Source: Gemmatimonadota bacterium (GTDB lineage: Bacteria; Gemmatimonadota; Gemmatimonadetes; Gemmatimonadales; GWC2-71-9). From it: a stretch of 64,000 nt of DNA. The stretch's first letter is position 1. The number at the start of each line of letters is the position of its first letter. Position numbers and translations under genes: made by a program. The notes under the pieces are model-generated. The model ran no database searches and was not told the DNA's origin. It worked only from the letters and a program-made list of their open reading frames with translations. Of this stretch, positions 13,658 through 21,556 are shown piece by piece. Location of the stretch: positions 1,664-65,663 of the forward strand of contig QHUM01000046.1 in NCBI GenBank assembly GCA_003222135.1, read 5' to 3'.

Positions 13658-14380
13658 GTGGCTGCTCCTGCCGACCGCGCCAAGCTGTTCGAGGAGATGC
13701 ACCGGCGCGGGGAGCCCTTCGACTACAGTCGCCGGGCCGCCGAGCTGCTGCGTCATCGGTTCGTCGGTGAAGCCGTGCGGCGGCTCCACGCCCACCCGAC
13801 GCGGCTGCTCGACATCGGCTGCAGCATGGGACAGCTCACGGCGCAGCTCGCGGGGCTCCCAGATGCCTTGTTCGCCGTGGATCTGTCGCCGACGGCGATC
13901 CGGGCGGCGCGGGACCGGCTGCGCACGGTCGGTGTGCCCGCCCGGTTCGTGGTCGCGAGTGCCACCGCGCTGCCGTTCCGAGAAGCGGCATTCGACGTCA
14001 CCGTGCTCTCGGACGGGCTCCACAGCTGGCAGCTCACCCCCGAGGAGCGTCAGCGGGCTCTGGCGCAGACGCATCGGATTCTGAGACCGGGCGGCTGGGC
14101 CGTACTCACCGAGTACCTGCAACCCCGCGCCTTTCCAGCCTTCGTGACGCAGGTGCGCGCCAGTCCGCTCGCCGTGGTGTCGATCGAATACCTGCACGAT
14201 CGCTTGTGGTACCAGGTGGAGTCGTGGTTCAAGGCCGTGCGCGATTGGCGCTGGGTGCAACGCCTGTTCGGCAGCATGGCCTTGGCGCGGCTGCTCCGCT
14301 CGGTCGCGCGGCCGCTCGGACCCTTAGGGTCGCGGCACATTCTGGTTATTGCCCGCCGATCTGACGAGGTGCCGCAGTGA
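13658..14380 (+). CDS. class I SAM-dependent methyltransferase
   Basis: Motif I LLDIGCSMGQL and later VLSDGLH ... LRPGGWAV. GTG 13658 sits directly after the upstream stop. The track ORF begins at 13481 inside the previous gene. Confidence 0.8.
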   Translation: MAAPADRAKLFEEMHRRGEPFDYSRRAAELLRHRFVGEAVRRLHAHPTRLLDIGCSMGQLTAQLAGLPDALFAVDLSPTAIRAARDRLRTVGVPARFVVASATALPFREAAFDVTVLSDGLHSWQLTPEERQRALAQTHRILRPGGWAVLTEYLQPRAFPAFVTQVRASPLAVVSIEYLHDRLWYQVESWFKAVRDWRWVQRLFGSMALARLLRSVARPLGPLGSRHILVIARRSDEVPQ

Positions 14381-14415
14381 GGTGCTGCACTTGTTGCATC
14401 GGTGTCACACGAAAT

Positions 14416-14430
14416 GTGCATAATCTGCAC
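14416..14430. promoter_or_regulatory. perfect dyad GTGCA-N5-TGCAC (candidate enhancer-binding-protein site)
   Basis: gtgcataatctgcac. More TGCAC/TGCAT half-sites lie at 14386-14399. The centre is about 60 nt upstream of the sigma54-like element. Confidence 0.35.
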
Positions 14431-14480
14431 GGTCATTAGTACAGTCTAGCAAGCCTACCTGAATGGGTGGTTGCGCGCTG

Positions 14481-16521: not shown

Positions 16522-17703
16522 ATGCGTCTTCTCAGCGCCCTGTTGGTCGCTCCCGTGTGGCTGGCCGCCCAGAGCGCGCCTTCGGCACCGGCAGACACGA
16601 CGGACAAGAAGGCCGCCGCGCCCCCGCCGCCTGCGCCGACCGTTAACCACCTCGAGACCACGCTGGCCGGCTTCAAGCTGTCCGGCTTCGCGGAGGCGTC
16701 GTACGCCTACTCGGGGCGCAGCCTCGGCGACACGGCGATCGTCGGGCGGCTGTACGATCGGCTGCAGAACCGCTTCGCCCTCAACGCGCTCGCCGTGGTG
16801 CTCGACCGGCCCTACGATCCGGCGAAGTTCAGCGCCGGGTTCCACACCGAGCTATTGGTGGGCCAGGACGCGACCGTAATCCAGTCGAATGGGCTCTTCG
16901 CGGGCGCCGCGACGCCGGTCCCGGTCGACGTGCCACATCTCTACGTCACGTTGAACGTTCCGACCGCCAGTGGCAACGGGCTGCAGTTCAAGGTCGGGCG
17001 GATTCCCACGCTCCTGGGCCTCGAGGTAATCGAGACCTACGCCAACCCCAACTGGTCGGAGGGGAACCAGTTCATCTACGTGGAGAACTTCACCGCGCTC
17101 GGGGTGAGCGTGGAGACGAAGTTCAACAACCATCTGGACGCACAGTTCCGTTTGATCAACGGCTGGGACCAGGTCGCGGACAACAACGGCCGCAAGTCCC
17201 TGATGGGACGAGTCGGGATCTATCCCGATGCGGCGACGTCGCTCGGCATCGTGGGGTTCTGGGGGCCCGAGGAAGCGAACATCAACAATGCCAACCGGTA
17301 CGGCGTCGAGGGGTTGCTGTGGCGCAAGCTCGGCAAGGCGGCCGTCTGGGTTCAGGGGGATTACGGGAAGGAGCAAGCCAACGCGGCGTTGCCCGATCCG
17401 ACGAAGGACGCGCAGTGGGTGGCGCTGGGTGGCTGGGTCACGTACGACTTCACGTCATCCGTCGGTTTGGCGCTGCGCGGCGACTACGTGAACGATCAGG
17501 ACGGCGCCCGCACCAGCGGCGTATTCGGTTTCCCAGCAAACGCGGGACAGAAGTTCGGCAGCGGCACGGCGACGTTGAACATCCGTGCCTGGCCGGACGC
17601 CGTGGTCCGGCCCGAGCTCCGGTACGACCGCTCGACCCTGGCGGCGTTCGCCGGCAAGAAGGATCAGGTCACGTTCGCGCTGGCTGTCGCGTATCTGTAC
17701 TGA
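16522..17703 (+). CDS. outer-membrane beta-barrel porin (OmpL-like putative porin family)
   Basis: Signal peptide MRLLSALLVAPVWLAAQ, an alternating amphipathic pattern and an aromatic C-terminus (VAYLY). It is the third gene after amtB-glnK. Confidence 0.6.
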   Translation: MRLLSALLVAPVWLAAQSAPSAPADTTDKKAAAPPPPAPTVNHLETTLAGFKLSGFAEASYAYSGRSLGDTAIVGRLYDRLQNRFALNALAVVLDRPYDPAKFSAGFHTELLVGQDATVIQSNGLFAGAATPVPVDVPHLYVTLNVPTASGNGLQFKVGRIPTLLGLEVIETYANPNWSEGNQFIYVENFTALGVSVETKFNNHLDAQFRLINGWDQVADNNGRKSLMGRVGIYPDAATSLGIVGFWGPEEANINNANRYGVEGLLWRKLGKAAVWVQGDYGKEQANAALPDPTKDAQWVALGGWVTYDFTSSVGLALRGDYVNDQDGARTSGVFGFPANAGQKFGSGTATLNIRAWPDAVVRPELRYDRSTLAAFAGKKDQVTFALAVAYLY

Positions 17704-18530
17704 GGCTGGCGAAAGAACCGGTACAGCAGCCAGAGGTCGAGCAGGCCCACCGCGCCCAGGACCGAGAACGCGGCGCCGCTGTCGATGAGGTGGAGCTGTC
17801 GCAGCAGGGTCGAGATGCCATAGCCGACGACCCAGGCGTCGAAGCTCATGCAGACGCGCCGGAAGGTTTCCGGTCGCACGTGCCGAATGACGCGCCCGCC
17901 GAGCGGGATCCCGACGATGAGGCTCGGGAGGATGTAGGGGAGCAGACCGGCGCTCTCGACCGTGAACATGCCGGCCACGTAGTACGCCGCGGCGGTGAAG
18001 GTCGATTCGGCGAGCCGGACGAGGCCCAGCCCCGCTCGGAAGTCCTGCTTGGCGAGTCCCTGGTTGCTCAACATCACGGCCAACGGCGGGCCGGAGATCG
18101 TGGTGACGGAGTACAGCACGCCGAGGCCGCTCCCGAAGAGCAGTCCGGCGCGCTGCTCCGCCTTGATCGGTCGGCGAAATCCGGCTGCTTGCAGGAGAAT
18201 CAGCGGCAGCAGGGCGATAAAGGTCGCGAGCTTGAGCCACCCCGGCTGCACCCGGTGCACGAGCGCCGTCCCGAGCACGACGCCCGGTGCCAGGCCGAGC
18301 ACCATCGGCAGGACCCGGCGCCACACCTGGGGGACGCTCGCTCGATTGACCCATAGGACATACGCGTTCAACACCACCTCGACCCATACGAGCGCCGGGT
18401 TGAGGATCCGATTGGTATAGAAGAGGAGGGCCACCGGCGCCGTGATCGACGAGAATCCGTACCCGAGGGATCCGTTGACCGTAGCGGCCAGCAATGTCGT
18501 GAGAACCAGGGCGAACGTGCTCGATGTCAT
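17664..18530 (-). CDS. TauE/SafE-family anion (sulfite/sulfonate) transporter
   Basis: Polytopic membrane protein with GSLGYGFSSITAPVALLF and a second half-repeat GPPLAVML. Start taken at ATG 18530. Confidence 0.8.
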   Translation of the reverse strand: MTSSTFALVLTTLLAATVNGSLGYGFSSITAPVALLFYTNRILNPALVWVEVVLNAYVLWVNRASVPQVWRRVLPMVLGLAPGVVLGTALVHRVQPGWLKLATFIALLPLILLQAAGFRRPIKAEQRAGLLFGSGLGVLYSVTTISGPPLAVMLSNQGLAKQDFRAGLGLVRLAESTFTAAAYYVAGMFTVESAGLLPYILPSLIVGIPLGGRVIRHVRPETFRRVCMSFDAWVVGYGISTLLRQLHLIDSGAAFSVLGAVGLLDLWLLYRFFRQPQYRYATASANVT

Positions 18531-18576
18531 GTCCAGCGAGGTCTGGCTCCCTCTCGTTTCAACGTTGAGGTGATGG

Positions 18577-18618
18577 CACAACAAACAGGCCCGGCGCACC
18601 GTGGGGTGGCCGGGCCTG
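18577..18618 (-). terminator. intrinsic terminator in the tauE leader
   Basis: On the minus strand: CAGGCCCGGC-CACC-CCAC-GGTG-C-GCCGGGCCTG, then TTTGTTGTG. The main stem is 10 bp with a further 4 bp. It ends 46 nt before the tauE ATG. Confidence 0.7.
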
Positions 18619-18653
18619 AAAGCGGCTCGAGTAGCGAAGAAACTAGCGGTTCT

Positions 18654-18746
18654 TCACAACTTCAAGAGGCGCGCTGCCGTGTCCGTCCAACCCTGCAGTT
18701 GGTCGTAGCAACAACAGACCGGGCAACACAGCGGCGTCGCGTGCAT
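18654..18746 (-). CDS. candidate Cys-rich leader peptide (30 aa) for tauE
   Basis: MHATPLCCPVCCCYDQLQGWTDTAARLLKL. Five Cys fall in 7 codons (18708-18728), three of them spelled TGT. The ATG lies about 10 nt after a -10-like box. The stop is 35 nt before the terminator stem. Confidence 0.5.
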   Translation of the reverse strand: MHATPLCCPVCCCYDQLQGWTDTAARLLKL

Positions 18747-18756
18747 GTGATCGGGC

Positions 18757-18785
18757 AAGCTAGGCCGGGCGTTGCGGCGTGTCAA
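18757..18785 (-). promoter_or_regulatory. sigma70-like promoter for the minus-strand leader
   Basis: On the minus strand: TTGACA (18785-18780), a 17-nt spacer, then TAGCTT (18762-18757). Confidence 0.35.
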
Positions 18786-18794
18786 CCGGGCGGG

Positions 18795-18823
18795 TTGACA
18801 GCCGAGCGCTCGGTCCGTAAATA
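18795..18823 (+). promoter_or_regulatory. sigma70-like promoter for the plus-strand leader
   Basis: TTGACA (18795-18800), a 17-nt spacer containing the 12-nt palindrome CCGAGCGCTCGG, then TAAATA (18818-18823). Confidence 0.35.
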
Positions 18824-18833
18824 ACCGGCATCC

Positions 18834-18950
18834 ATGATGACGCACCGCGCCTGCCGCCGTTGTTGTCCGTGTTGTCGGACGATCGACGCTCGCTCCCCGG
18901 GGAGCGGACGCGGTTGCGGCGCTCGAGTGCCGGCCGGCAACGGATGCTGA
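18834..18950 (+). CDS. candidate Cys-rich leader peptide (38 aa) for cysC-cysH-sat
   Basis: MMTHRACRRCCPCCRTIDARSPGSGRGCGARVPAGNGC has 7 Cys, five of them in 8 codons (18852-18875) and four spelled TGT. The ATG lies about 10 nt after the -10 box. Confidence 0.5.
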   Translation: MMTHRACRRCCPCCRTIDARSPGSGRGCGARVPAGNGC

Positions 18951-18977
18951 CCGACTAGTTTAAACGGCACGCGCGTC

Positions 18978-19025
18978 GCAGATCGGGCCCGCTTCCCAAG
19001 AGGGAAGCGGGCCCGCTGCTTTTTT
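18978..19025 (+). terminator. intrinsic terminator in the cysC leader
   Basis: GCAG-(AT)-CGGGCCCGCTTCCC-AAGA-GGGAAGCGGGCCCG-CTGC followed by TTTTTT. It ends 21 nt before the cysC ATG, which has its own GGAGG. Confidence 0.8.
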
Positions 19026-19046
19026 CTCGCTGCGGAGGTTCGAGAG

Positions 19047-19628
19047 ATGGCCCAAGTCGAGTTGGCGAGCGGCAGACGGATCAGGCAGGCGTCGGGCTTT
19101 ACGCTGTGGTTCACCGGCCTGTCAGGCGCGGGAAAGTCCACGCTTGCCGCCGCCGTCAGCCGGGAGCTGCGCCGTCACGGGATCGCGGTCGAAGTCCTGG
19201 ACGGCGACGAAGTGCGCCAGAATCTGTCACAGGGGCTGGGTTTCTCACGTGAAGACCGCGACACCAACATCCGCCGCATCGGCTACGTGGCGAGGCTGCT
19301 CACGCGGAACGGGGTCGCGGTGATCACCGCCGCCATCTCTCCGTACCGCGCGGTGCGCGACGAAGTGCGCCGGGAAGTGGGCGCGTTTGTCGAGGTGCAC
19401 GTGAAGGCCTCGCTCGACGAGTGTATTCGGCGCGATGCGAAGGGGCTGTACCGGCGGGCGCTGGCGGGCGAGATCCCCCACTTCACTGGGGTCTCCGACC
19501 CGTACGAGGAGCCGCTGCGACCCGAGCTGGTCGTGGACACCGAGCGGGAGGACGTCGGCGACAGCGCCACGCGGGTGATCGAGCGCCTCGTCGAGCTCGG
19601 CTATCTCCGGAGCGCGGCCGATGCCTAG
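19047..19628 (+). CDS. cysC: adenylyl-sulfate (APS) kinase
   Basis: P-loop [18 protein letters not shown], plus [27 protein letters not shown]. Confidence 0.95.
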
Positions 19629-20304
19629 CCCGGCGGAGGTGCGCGCGCACGCTCGGGCGCTGCACGGGGCGAGCCCCGAAGCGATTCTGACGTGGGCCGT
19701 CGCGACGTTCCCGCGAAAGGCGGCGCTCACCGTGAGCTTCGGCGGTGGCGGTGTGGTGCTCGCGCACCTGATCGGTCGCATCGACCGGACGGTGCCCGTG
19801 ATGTTCCTGGACACCGGGTTCCATTTCCCGGAGACGTACGCCTTCAAAGACCGGTTCGTCAGGCAATACGGCCTCAATCTCGTCGAGCTGCCTCCGTTGA
19901 CCGACCCCGGACCGCTGTACCGGACCGATCCCGATCGCTGCTGCTGGATCCGTAAGGTCGAGCCGCTCGAGCGGGCGCTCGCGGGGTTCGACGCCTGGAT
20001 CAGCGCCGTGCGGCAGGATCAGACCGACCACCGCGCGGCGACCGAGCTACTCGAGTATCACGAGGTCGCCGGACGCCCCATCGTGAAGGTGTTTCCGCTC
20101 GCTCACTGGAGTCGGGCGGACGTGTGGGACTACATCCGGGAGAACGACGTTCCCTATCACCCGCTGCTCGATCAGGGCTATACGAGTATCGGGTGCTGGC
20201 CCTGCACCAGACCGACGACAGCGGGGGAGCCCGAGCGGGCGGGCCGCTGGGCCGGCACCAGCAAGACCGAGTGCGGGCTCCACACCTTCAGCGTGAAGCG
20301 ATGA
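19621..20304 (+). CDS. cysH: APS/PAPS reductase (Fe-S, APS-reductase-type Cys pattern)
   Basis: [13 protein letters not shown], the Cys pairs [12 protein letters not shown] and GCWPCT, and the catalytic KTECGLH. 8-nt overlap with cysC. Confidence 0.9.
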
Positions 20305-21431
20305 GCGTGGACTTGGTCAACCGCGTGATCCCGGAAGACGAACGGGCCGCCGCGCTCGAACGCGCGGGCCGCCTGCCGTCGCTCACGCTCGATCCCCACA
20401 CGATGGCCGATCTCGAGCTGATCGCGACCGGGGGATACAGCCCGCTCACGGGCTTCCTGGGCTCGGCCGACTACCAGCGCGTGATCCACGAGATGCGCCT
20501 CGCCGACGGGCGGCCGTGGCCGCTACCCATCACGCTGCGCGTTGCCGTGGCGCCGGGATTGGGCGATGCGGTGGCGCTGAAGGCACCGGACGGGTCCATC
20601 GTCGGCCTGCTCGACGTGCGGGACGTGTACACCGCTTCCCGCCCGGAGGAGGCGCAGCTGGTCTTTGGCACGCGCGATGCTGCGCATCCCGGCGTGGCCC
20701 AGCTGTACGGGCAGGGCGATCTCGCCGTCGGTGGCGAGGTCTGGTTGCTGCGTCGCACCGTGCCGCCGTTCCCCGAGCTCGCGCTCGATCCAGCCGACAC
20801 GCGGCGGATCTTCGCCGAGCGCGGCTGGCGCACGGTGGTCGGCTTCCAGACTCGCAATCCCGTCCATCGCGCGCACGAGTACATCCAGAAAGCGGCGCTC
20901 GAAATCGTGGACGGCCTGTTGCTGCACCCGCTCGTCGGCCCGACCAAGGAGGACGACATTCCCGCGGACGTCCGCGTTCGGAGCTACCGGGTCCTGCTCG
21001 AGCGCTATTACCCGCCCGACCGGGTACTCCTCGCCGCGTTTCCCGCCGCCATGCGGTACGCGGGGCCGCGGGAAGCCGTCTTCCACGCGCTGGTGCGCAG
21101 GAACTACGGCTGCACCCACTTCATCGTCGGCCGCGACCACGCGGGCGTGGGGAGCTACTACGGCCCGTACGACGCCCAACGGATTTTCCAGCGGTTCCGA
21201 CCGGATGAGCTGGGCATCGAGCCGCTCTGCTTCGAGCACACGTTCTACTGTCGCCGCTGCGGGGCGATGGCTTCGCCCAAGACGTGCCCGCATGACGGAG
21301 ACGCGCGGGTGACGCTCTCCGGCACCAAAGTGCGCGAGCTATTGCGGAGCGGCGAGTTGCCGCCGCCCGAGTTCAGCCGCCCGGAGGTAGCCCGCGTGCT
21401 CGCTGACGGCTTAAAGGAGATACTCGCATGA
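20301..21431 (+). CDS. sat: sulfate adenylyltransferase (ATP sulfurylase, Sat type)
   Basis: Motifs [13 protein letters not shown] and [13 protein letters not shown] 20301 forms an ATGA overlap with the cysH stop. Confidence 0.9.
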
Positions 21432-21556
21432 CCGCATCGACCCTCCGCGAGGTCCTCGATCGGCTGGGACGGGCGTTGCGGGAGCGCTGGGCGTGGTATC
21501 GGCGCCAGCAACGCGACGACCGTGAGCGGCACTGGTGGGACGTCTACAACCGGTGA
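21428..21556 (+). CDS. candidate 42-aa Trp/Arg-rich small protein coupled to sat
   Basis: ATGA overlap with the sat stop. Translation is [42 protein letters not shown]. About 36 of 42 third positions are G/C. It is below the ORF-track size cutoff. Confidence 0.35.

Follow-up and report, generated by a model that had tools for sequence, protein, structure and literature searches.

The stretch of DNA analysed here, called the window throughout, comprises 64,000 nucleotides (nt) of contig QHUM01000046.1 (positions 1,664-65,663 of the forward strand; assembly GCA_003222135.1, Gemmatimonadota bacterium). It carries the sulfate-assimilation genes cysC, cysH and sat and, divergently upstream of them, tauE. 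The subject of this study is the leader in front of cysC, in which a short open reading frame (ORF) rich in cysteine (Cys) codons is followed by an intrinsic terminator. A sequence-only reading of the window had put this leader forward as a candidate ribosome-mediated Cys attenuator. The coordinates that it gave for the promoter, the ORF, the terminator, the GGAGG sequence and the cysC ATG were all borne out on re-reading, and its naming of the downstream genes agreed with Pfam (APS kinase, PAPS reductase and ATP sulfurylase, with TauE divergent upstream). The parts of the leader and of its operon are listed below; positions are those of the window.

18795-18800 (+): -35 hexamer TTGACA, read in the sequence; nearly invariant in 49 relatives
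18818-18823 (+): -10 element TAAATA, 17 nt past the -35 hexamer; (G)TAAATA is conserved in relatives
18834-18950 (+): leader ORF of 38 codons with 7 Cys, MMTHRACRRCCPCCRTIDARSPGSGRGCGARVPAGNGC, read directly; stop codon at 18948-18950
18852-18875 (+): Cys-codon run in codons 7-14 (C7 is TGC; C10, C11, C13 and C14 are TGT)
18860-18869 (+): Cys-tract strand UGUUGUCCG, the predicted anti-antiterminator in the RNAalifold consensus; its partner is 18905-18913
18880-18898 (+): local segment 1 in single-sequence folds; 18880-18896 pairs with 18901-18916 in a hairpin of 15 base pairs (bp), with CGCTCC at 18891-18896
18899-18913 (+): segment 2, GGGGAGCGGACGCGG, the putative switch strand, inside ORF codons 22-27
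18927-18974 (+): middle helix, 18927-18936 with 18965-18974, enclosing the stop codon (18948-18950) and present in both predicted conformations
18984-18997 (+): terminator 5' arm (segment 3), CGGGCCCGCTTCCC
19002-19015 (+): terminator 3' arm (segment 4), GGGAAGCGGGCCCG, preceded by the loop AAGA
18978-19025 (+): whole intrinsic terminator, with the outer GCAG/CUGC and T6 at 19020-19025
19034-19038 (+): GGAGG, Shine-Dalgarno (SD) sequence of cysC
19047-19628 (+): cysC (APS kinase), ATG at 19047; Pfam PF01583, E = 3.5e-61
19621-20304 (+): cysH (PAPS/APS reductase); Pfam PF01507, E = 6e-47
20124-21431 (+): sat (ATP sulfurylase), coordinates of the longest frame; Pfam PF01747 and PF14306

The terminator hairpin proper (18984-19015) is a perfect 14-bp stem that includes 12 G-C pairs (-37.5 kcal/mol). 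The sequence-only reading had the position, the arms, the loop and the T6 of the terminator right, and it had left out a 2-nt bulge, AT (18982-18983), that separates GCAG from the main stem. Segment 2 and the terminator 3' arm are alike at 11 of 14 positions. Folding of the leader region beat that of 200 of 200 shuffled sequences (z = -3.3). A six-frame scan of every short ORF in the 64 kb found at least five Cys within 8 residues only in the leader ORF and its minus-strand twin, and a search of the window for further copies of segment 2 returned none.

A simple promoter scan of the window missed the cysC-leader promoter, as TAAATA does not end in T. The two hexamers, and the spacing between them, are kept in most of the 49 aligned relatives. 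The ATG at 18834 lies 10 nt past TAAATA in the window, and the corresponding distance is 7-8 nt in 41 of 49 relatives; no SD sequence precedes it. A distance this short implies a 5' leader that is very short or absent. The spacing fits 0-4 nt, which suggests a transcription start that would leave the message leaderless or nearly so. The -35 hexamers of the cysC-leader promoter and of the tauE-leader promoter stand back to back in a perfect inverted repeat (TGTCAAC-N7-GTTGACA, 18780-18800), which may represent plain divergent promoters or may double as a regulator-binding site.

Conservation of the leader and its reading frame

The closest CysC proteins in the genome collection were those of three Gemmatimonadetes metagenome-assembled genomes (MAGs; ~80% identity). 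A Cys-rich short ORF and a terminator were located directly 5' of cysC in all three, and a 25-nt block, GGGGAGCGGACGCGGTTGYGGCGCT, is identical in the window and these MAGs (4 sequences). A metagenome collection was scanned with the degenerate pattern GGGAGCGGNCGNGGNTGYGGNGC, and chance matches were then removed. This left ~55 loci in which the promoter, the ATG, the tandem Cys run, the GGGGAGCGGACGCGG block and the terminator (stems of 12-14 bp) occur in fixed order, L127 among them being a near-identical match to the window. The 49 distinct leader sequences among these loci, from Gemmatimonadota-like genomes and soil metagenomes, constitute alignment A1. Since the pattern fixed most of segment 2, the invariance of that segment in A1 is partly a matter of ascertainment. 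A protein search with a profile of 12 leader peptides gave only two called ORFs and did not widen the family. The ORF, its reading frame, the Cys run and the terminator, whose conservation the sequence-only reading had proposed as a test, are all kept in relatives.

The leader unit is followed by cysC-cysH-sat in ~45 loci. It was also found directly before cysH (L140 and L162), before a sulfite reductase gene (L103) and before a cysG-like siroheme synthase gene (L086). The element therefore tracks sulfur assimilation as a class and not one neighbour. The distance from terminator to cysC, and the sequence between them, vary freely among relatives.

Evidence on the translation of the leader ORF was drawn from A1. 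Gap runs between the ATG and A1 column 200 were counted as lying inside the ORF, and the aligner was codon-blind. Each of the 10 distinct indels inside the ORF is a multiple of three (3, 6 or 21 nt). After the common stop there are 14 indel runs, of 1, 2, 3, 5, 6, 7 or 9 nt, and 5 of these 14 are multiples of three. Read from the aligned ATG, 49 of 49 sequences have an open frame of 31-47 codons, which always contains the tandem Cys codons in phase. Family leaders have a mean of 6.1 Cys in 36.7 codons (16.6% Cys), a ~17-fold enrichment over the 33 long ORFs of the window that served as codon background (0.96% of codons). TGT makes up 84% of the Cys codons in the leader family and 22% of those in the window's long ORFs. 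This agrees with what had been noticed of the window's own ORF, namely that four of the five Cys codons found within 8 codons (of 7 in all) are spelled TGT, a rare choice in this DNA.

Across the family, the triplets TGT TGT CCG are essentially invariant, even at third codon positions; the N-terminal codons are free to vary, even at second positions, and the tail and the stop position vary too. In the consensus helix, A18908 has as its partner base 18866, the third of the second tandem TGT; this supplies a structural reason for TGT beside codon rarity. In three sequences (L084, L098 and L174), an insertion puts a GGGAGG SD sequence ten bases before the same ATG. The indel phase, the open frame, the codon pattern, the acquired SD sequence and the Cys enrichment thus all point to an ORF that is translated.

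Between terminator and cysC, an additional element, CTCACCCCCTGTCCCCCTCTCC...GGAGAGGGGG, occurs in many relatives (for example L001:2935-2975, L137, L144 and L150) and is absent from the window; it folds as a second hairpin without a T run. Just 3' of the leader stop, the heptamer CGA(C/T)TAG is nearly invariant (window 18951-18958; A1 columns 217-224). Its TAG closes the +2 frame (ORF 18860-18958) as well as a mini-frame, ATG..(C/T)TC GA(C/T) TAG. The heptamer may be structural, may serve as a back-up stop for frameshifted ribosomes or may be due to chance. Rearrangements were seen in three loci: two inverted leader copies (53-75 and 857-879) flank a cysC fragment in L154, a deletion joins the cysC start to the sat end in L130, and a deletion takes out the stop codon and the middle helix in L141. 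These may be assembly artefacts or genuine variants. Cys-rich frames 5' of cysC in six further loci (L007, L010, L019, L029, L040 and L061) were rejected; they are long TTG/GTG frames that overlap neighbouring genes.

Alternative pairings and the proposed mechanism

The existence of a competing antiterminator, which the sequence-only reading had proposed by eye, was upheld by RNAalifold and by single-sequence folds. For the full transcript, RNAalifold on A1 paired the Cys tract 18860-18869 (UUG-UGUCCG) with 18905-18913 (CGGACGCGG), and the same state also featured the middle helix (18927-18936/18965-18974) and the terminator. With the terminator 3' arm withheld, 18900-18913 paired with 18983-18996 of the terminator 5' arm in a 12-bp helix. 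This antiterminator helix is mutually exclusive with the terminator and is paired in 100% of cells; the proposed pairing of segment 2 with the terminator 5' arm is thus available in 49 of 49 sequences. The consensus Cys-tract helix is paired in 99% of cells. Standard pairs were found in 98.4% and 98.6% of A1 cells, compared to 33-49% after the partners were slid. The other partner named for segment 2, CGCTCC, does lie within the window's local hairpin (18880-18916); in the family consensus, that role falls to the Cys tract UGUUGUCCG instead. A hairpin seen in the window fold, GUCCG/CGGAC (18865-18880), was dismissed as a part of the switch, as a synonymous change of Arg CGG to CGA in relatives breaks it.

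Sequence changes within the helices were also tabulated. In L174, L084 and L093, U is replaced by C in the terminator 5' arm, which converts an antiterminator G-U pair to G-C and breaks a U-A pair of the terminator. Changes on both sides of a helix occur only in the middle helix (UGCCG/CGGCA to GUCGUC/GACGAC in L086, L103 and L140). No covariation is possible in segment 2 because the scan pattern fixed it; this is a limit of ascertainment and not evidence against the pairing.

Stalled ribosomes were modelled by masking the RNA to 14 nt past the A-site codon, with the terminator 3' arm withheld; the arm was likewise withheld in the folds without a ribosome and with a ribosome at the stop codon. 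In full-length folds, the terminator forms in 49 of 49 sequences. Without a ribosome, the antiterminator is the minimum-energy fold in 16 of 49, and segment 2 pairs upstream elsewhere (median antiterminator advantage +1.2 kcal/mol). With a ribosome at the stop codon, the figures are 17 of 49 and +2.1 kcal/mol. For most of the run's Cys codons, placing the ribosome there leads nearly every sequence to the predicted antiterminator, and the median advantage is +9.4 kcal/mol for the tandem Cys. Masking of the Cys codons therefore moves the predicted balance in the family by ~8 kcal/mol towards the antiterminator.

What the computations show directly is the leader's parts, how far they are conserved, the coding signature that the ORF bears and pairings that exclude one another. 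On these grounds, the leader is probably a ribosome-mediated transcription attenuator, through which cysC-cysH-sat would respond to the supply of charged tRNA-Cys. We infer from them the start of transcription, the translation of the leader ORF, the stalling at its Cys codons and the response to cysteine. In the proposed scheme, transcription would begin a few bases before the ATG at 18834, and the ORF would be read from a leaderless or near-leaderless RNA. The ribosome would meet the Cys codons (18852-18875), then segment 2 (18899-18913) and then the 5' strand of the antiterminator rod up to the stop at 18948. If Cys-tRNA is ample, the ribosome would trail the polymerase through segment 2 and occupy it, or upstream RNA would re-capture it; the re-capturing RNA would be the Cys tract UGUUGUCCG in most relatives and the local hairpin (18880-18916) in the window. 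The terminator (18984-19015) with its T6 would then form, and transcription would stop ~20 nt before cysC. If Cys-tRNA is scarce, the ribosome would halt on the Cys codons, and the upstream competitor would be covered or opened. The region 18983-18996 would zip with segment 2 and the strand that lies behind, the terminator 5' arm would be sequestered, and the polymerase would enter cysC-cysH-sat.

A number of points weigh against this scheme. The whole case for a Cys attenuator is computational. Both key alternative helices are backed by conservation and one-sided changes only, the conservation of segment 2 being subject to the ascertainment bias described above. Part of the 8 kcal/mol shift is trivial, because masking any upstream RNA somewhat favours downstream pairing. 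The mechanism also presupposes leaderless translation and the coupling of transcription to translation, which are unproven in this phylum. Thermodynamic discrimination in the window sequence itself is weak: the antiterminator is favoured in all conditions, by 7.0 kcal/mol with no ribosome, 7.7 kcal/mol with a ribosome at the stop codon and 9.8 kcal/mol with a Cys stall. The consensus Cys-tract helix is outside the window's best fold (-18.7 kcal/mol when enforced vs. -26.3 kcal/mol for the alternative). The run ends with a Cys codon 4 nt short of the base of the local hairpin, and the further TGT that abuts segment 1 in most relatives is replaced by GAC in the window.

In the window, the minimum-energy upstream partner of segment 2 is the local 15-bp hairpin at 18880-18916 (-19.3 kcal/mol). 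With a ribosome on Cys14, only the lower half of this hairpin would come apart, and the energy balance in the window hardly moves. The earlier claim that a stalled ribosome frees the antiterminator would hold for the family consensus, with its predicted shift of ~8 kcal/mol, and only in part for the window, where the hairpin would be half opened. As the antiterminator is favoured there with or without a stalled ribosome, the choice would have to be kinetic or be made by the ribosome translating through the 5' strand of the antiterminator. The predicted antiterminator of the window is a 99-nt rod (18899-18997, -53.2 kcal/mol) with the ORF stop codon at its tip; a ribosome finishing the ORF would therefore unwind the whole 5' strand as the terminator is made, and one held on the Cys run (18852-18875) would not engage that strand. 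The switch in the window is thus argued from the geometry of this modelled rod and from the usual kinetics of attenuation.

The tauE leader and other leader families

A second Cys leader, missed in the sequence-only reading, was found on the opposite strand in front of tauE. Its features are as follows.

18757-18785 (-): tauE-leader promoter; TTGACA 18785-18780, 17-nt spacer, TAGCTT 18762-18757, 10 nt to the ATG
18654-18746 (-): second Cys leader ORF MHATPLCCPVCCCYDQLQGWTDTAARLLKL (begins MHATPLCCPVCCCYDQ), ATG at 18746; Cys codons at 18728-18723 and 18716-18708
18681-18695 (-): segment 2 of the tauE leader, CAGGGTTGGACGGAC; conserved
18578-18618 (-): tauE-leader intrinsic terminator, CAGGCCCGGCCACC / GGTG-C-GCCGGGCCTG, then TTTGTTGT; conserved in relatives
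17664-18530 (-): tauE (TauE/SafE-family permease); Pfam PF01925

The terminator of this leader is a 14-bp hairpin with a U-rich tail. Its position, together with alignment to relatives, indicates that tauE probably starts at ATG 18530 and not at GTG 18599, the start given in the mechanical ORF list. Homologous Cys leaders precede tauE in nine loci (L084, L098, L109, L114, L174, L127, L100, L150 and L184). The promoter is kept in six relatives that have tauE beside the cysC leader, and a similar one (TTGACA with TAGGTT or TAGACT) is visible in three more. In L100 and L150, tauE is 7-8 kb from the cysC leader; the tauE leader of L184 is ~7.5 kb upstream of the cysC leader. A 1-nt deletion after the Cys run in the tauE leader of L098 alters the peptide tail and leaves the RNA intact. 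A block of the tauE leader, CAGGGUUGGACGGAC, can pair either with the Cys-tract region (three covarying positions) or with CCGGCCACCC of the terminator 5' arm. By analogy with the cysC leader, the tauE leader would be an independently evolved attenuator of the same design on the other strand.

Two Planctomycetota MAGs (L060 and L066) have an unrelated Cys leader, MNxKxKMCC(C/L)MCA..., and a terminator directly before cysC.

L066:2843-2975 and L060:2850-2975: Planctomycetota leaders MNANKAKMCCCMCAPRGGTCAGMAL and MNTKTKMCCLMCAHNGGLRSGMVC

In the predicted folds of these leaders, the Cys codons pair with a strand that alternatively pairs with the terminator 5' arm (1:2 / 2:3 / 3:4). The cysC-type, tauE-type and Planctomycetota-type leaders share only the run of Cys codons and the terminator logic. 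Two leaders from one intergenic region, and copies before other sulfur genes in relatives, point to a ribosome-read regulon. We lean slightly away from, and thus hold only tentatively, the wider proposition of a multi-operon Cys-attenuation regulon in the Gemmatimonadota lineage (cysC-cysH-sat and tauE, with cysH, sulfite reductase and cysG in relatives) and a counterpart in Planctomycetota that evolved independently. A TauE-family permease under the same signal would suggest a role for it in sulfur acquisition.

Divergent from the Cys leader in L001 (2490-2641, minus strand), and also in L002, L003, L130 and L162, is an ORF with a run of His codons (MERTRLHHRHHHHH..., MERTRLHHRHHHHHP...). Its ATG is 6 nt after a -10 element, TAGTTA, and it is followed by a candidate terminator hairpin, a short T run and then hisG, the last identified by eye only. 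From its sequence, this arrangement looks like a leaderless his attenuator. Its placement before the putative hisG suggests that leader-peptide control is used in this Gemmatimonadota group.

A third Cys-rich short ORF of the window (14377-14439, +; RCCTCC), upstream of an ammonium transporter gene, is probably not a Cys leader and was set aside, as it lacks a terminator and lies among TGCA-type repeats (TGCACTTGTTGCA, TGCATAATCTGCA) that resemble enhancer-binding sites. In the operon itself, the true start of sat is probably near the cysH stop, judging from relatives that align well only from residue ~64 on. An ORF of 42 codons (21428-21556, +) has an ATGA overlap on the sat stop codon and may encode a translationally coupled small protein that ends the operon.

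Alternative explanations and known systems

Three other explanations of the cysC leader were weighed. The ORF could be an independent small gene for a Cys-rich (metal- or redox-active) micropeptide, as its own promoter and strong terminator have the layout of a self-contained gene, the motif CCPxC...GSGRGCGA is kept at the peptide level, and gene callers predicted two such peptides. However, the synonymous sites of the GSGRGCGA block are conserved as well, a sign of constraint on the RNA, and the ORF overlaps a strand able to pair with the terminator. Neither the N-terminus nor the tail is conserved as protein, the stop codon shifts from sequence to sequence, and the frameshift in the analogous tauE leader of L098 changes the tail while sparing the RNA. 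Moreover, the unit is always followed directly by a same-strand gene of sulfur assimilation, and which gene this is differs from locus to locus. A micropeptide gene is therefore considered very unlikely. Equally small is the chance of a riboswitch or a protein-binding leader, in which the conserved RNA would control the terminator through a bound metabolite or regulator and the ORF would be incidental. Nucleotide conservation across 18899-19015 is indeed very high, a long structured rod is predicted, and sulfur genes in other phyla are under riboswitch control (S-box/SAM). Against this, Rfam 15 gave no match anywhere in the window at gathering thresholds, and a permissive search of 18400-19200 (E up to 10) gave only chance-level matches to the terminator hairpin; weak matches to RsmW, Pxr and a miRNA were set aside as due to the GC-rich hairpin alone. 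The coding signature of the ORF (indels in threes, phase with the ATG, acquired SD sequence) is unexpected for an incidental frame, and the three unrelated leaders have no aptamer-like core in common.

It could also be that the Cys ORF senses cysteine and acts on the translation of cysC or through Rho-dependent polarity, the hairpin serving RNA stability or insulation. The only Cys-rich small ORF (sORF) dissected by experiment, a mycobacterial one, does act on translation (bioRxiv 10.1101/834739), and the weak thermodynamic discrimination at the window terminator would fit such an output. Yet the conserved hairpin and U-rich tract have every feature of a strong intrinsic terminator, the cysC SD sequence is downstream of the hairpin and outside the conserved alternative pairings, and the terminator-to-cysC spacing and sequence are unconstrained. 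We give this explanation, like the other two, little credence, and transcription attenuation at the terminator is preferred.

If this reading is true, classical intrinsic-terminator attenuation also serves cysteine and is extended to the little-studied Gemmatimonadota and Planctomycetota. If the wider proposition of a regulon is true as well, terminator-based Cys attenuation would be a widespread and overlooked control of assimilatory sulfate reduction in phyla with no known regulator of that pathway. The interest of the finding lies in a Cys attenuator based on a terminator, its apparently leaderless start, a pair of divergent leaders and an occurrence in neglected phyla. The ~55 sequences can seed a covariance model for annotating the element. 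A search of full-text literature found no account of a terminator-based Cys leader before sulfate-assimilation genes, or of one in Gemmatimonadota or Planctomycetota.

Leader-peptide attenuation is textbook knowledge for Trp, His, Leu, Thr, Ile/Val and Phe. Like the classical trp, his, leu, thr, ilv and pheA attenuators, the cysC leader has a promoter-proximal ORF rich in codons for the end product and a terminator before the first structural gene; its switch strand can pair either upstream or with the terminator 5' arm, and the regulatory codons are in or beside the competitor. In contrast to the enterobacterial examples, cysteine is the amino acid sensed, the ORF appears to be nearly leaderless and lacks an SD sequence, the phylum is a different one, and there is no sequence relationship. 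Also, the ORF of the cysC leader runs through the switch strand to the tip of the rod, whereas the classical ORF stops just after segment 1.

Leader ORFs that sense Cys have themselves been described, so the novelty is below what the sequence-only reading, which knew of no characterised example, had estimated. Experiments in Mycobacterium smegmatis showed several cysteine-related operons to be under the control of leaderless polycysteine sORFs (Canestrari et al. 2020, bioRxiv 10.1101/834739). In Actinobacteria, candidate leader ORFs with Cys runs were detected before cys operons by comparative genomics (Seliverstov et al. 2005, PMC1262725); no terminator hairpins were found there, and the mechanism was left open, with Rho suggested (PMC1262725). 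The terminator and the alternative pairings are explicit in the present leader, in contrast. In Rhodobacterales, the uORFC-8-2 motif 5' of cysS was predicted to have a tandem-Cys upstream ORF in a stem, followed by a stem that resembles a terminator and by a run of U (Brewer et al. 2021, PMC8632094). That motif, like the cysC leader, was read as ribosome-mediated attenuation, and both are computational predictions. It differs in that it would control a tRNA synthetase gene and has two Cys codons; here sulfate assimilation would be controlled, with 5-7 Cys codons, in another phylum and with unrelated sequence.

In sensing, the leader resembles the mycobacterial sORFs, which are also unannotated and apparently leaderless, have consecutive Cys codons, occur before several operons of cysteine and sulfur metabolism per genome and use ribosome pausing as the signal, as is proposed here. 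In the dissected mycobacterial case (Ms5788A, of the "Cys ribulon"), a ribosome-binding site is unmasked; control is translational and involves no terminator (bioRxiv 10.1101/834739). Such unmasking of an SD sequence was not found in the present family, whose conserved pairings involve the terminator and not the cysC SD sequence (19034-19038). Here, terminator and antiterminator are conserved, the Cys tract occupies codons 7-14 (it is often C-terminal in mycobacteria), and the sequences are unrelated. The element of the window thus resembles the mycobacterial class at the sensing step and is not a member of it. What is described is probably a known mechanism that reads cysteine, in two or three new leader families, and the mechanism as such will not surprise a specialist.

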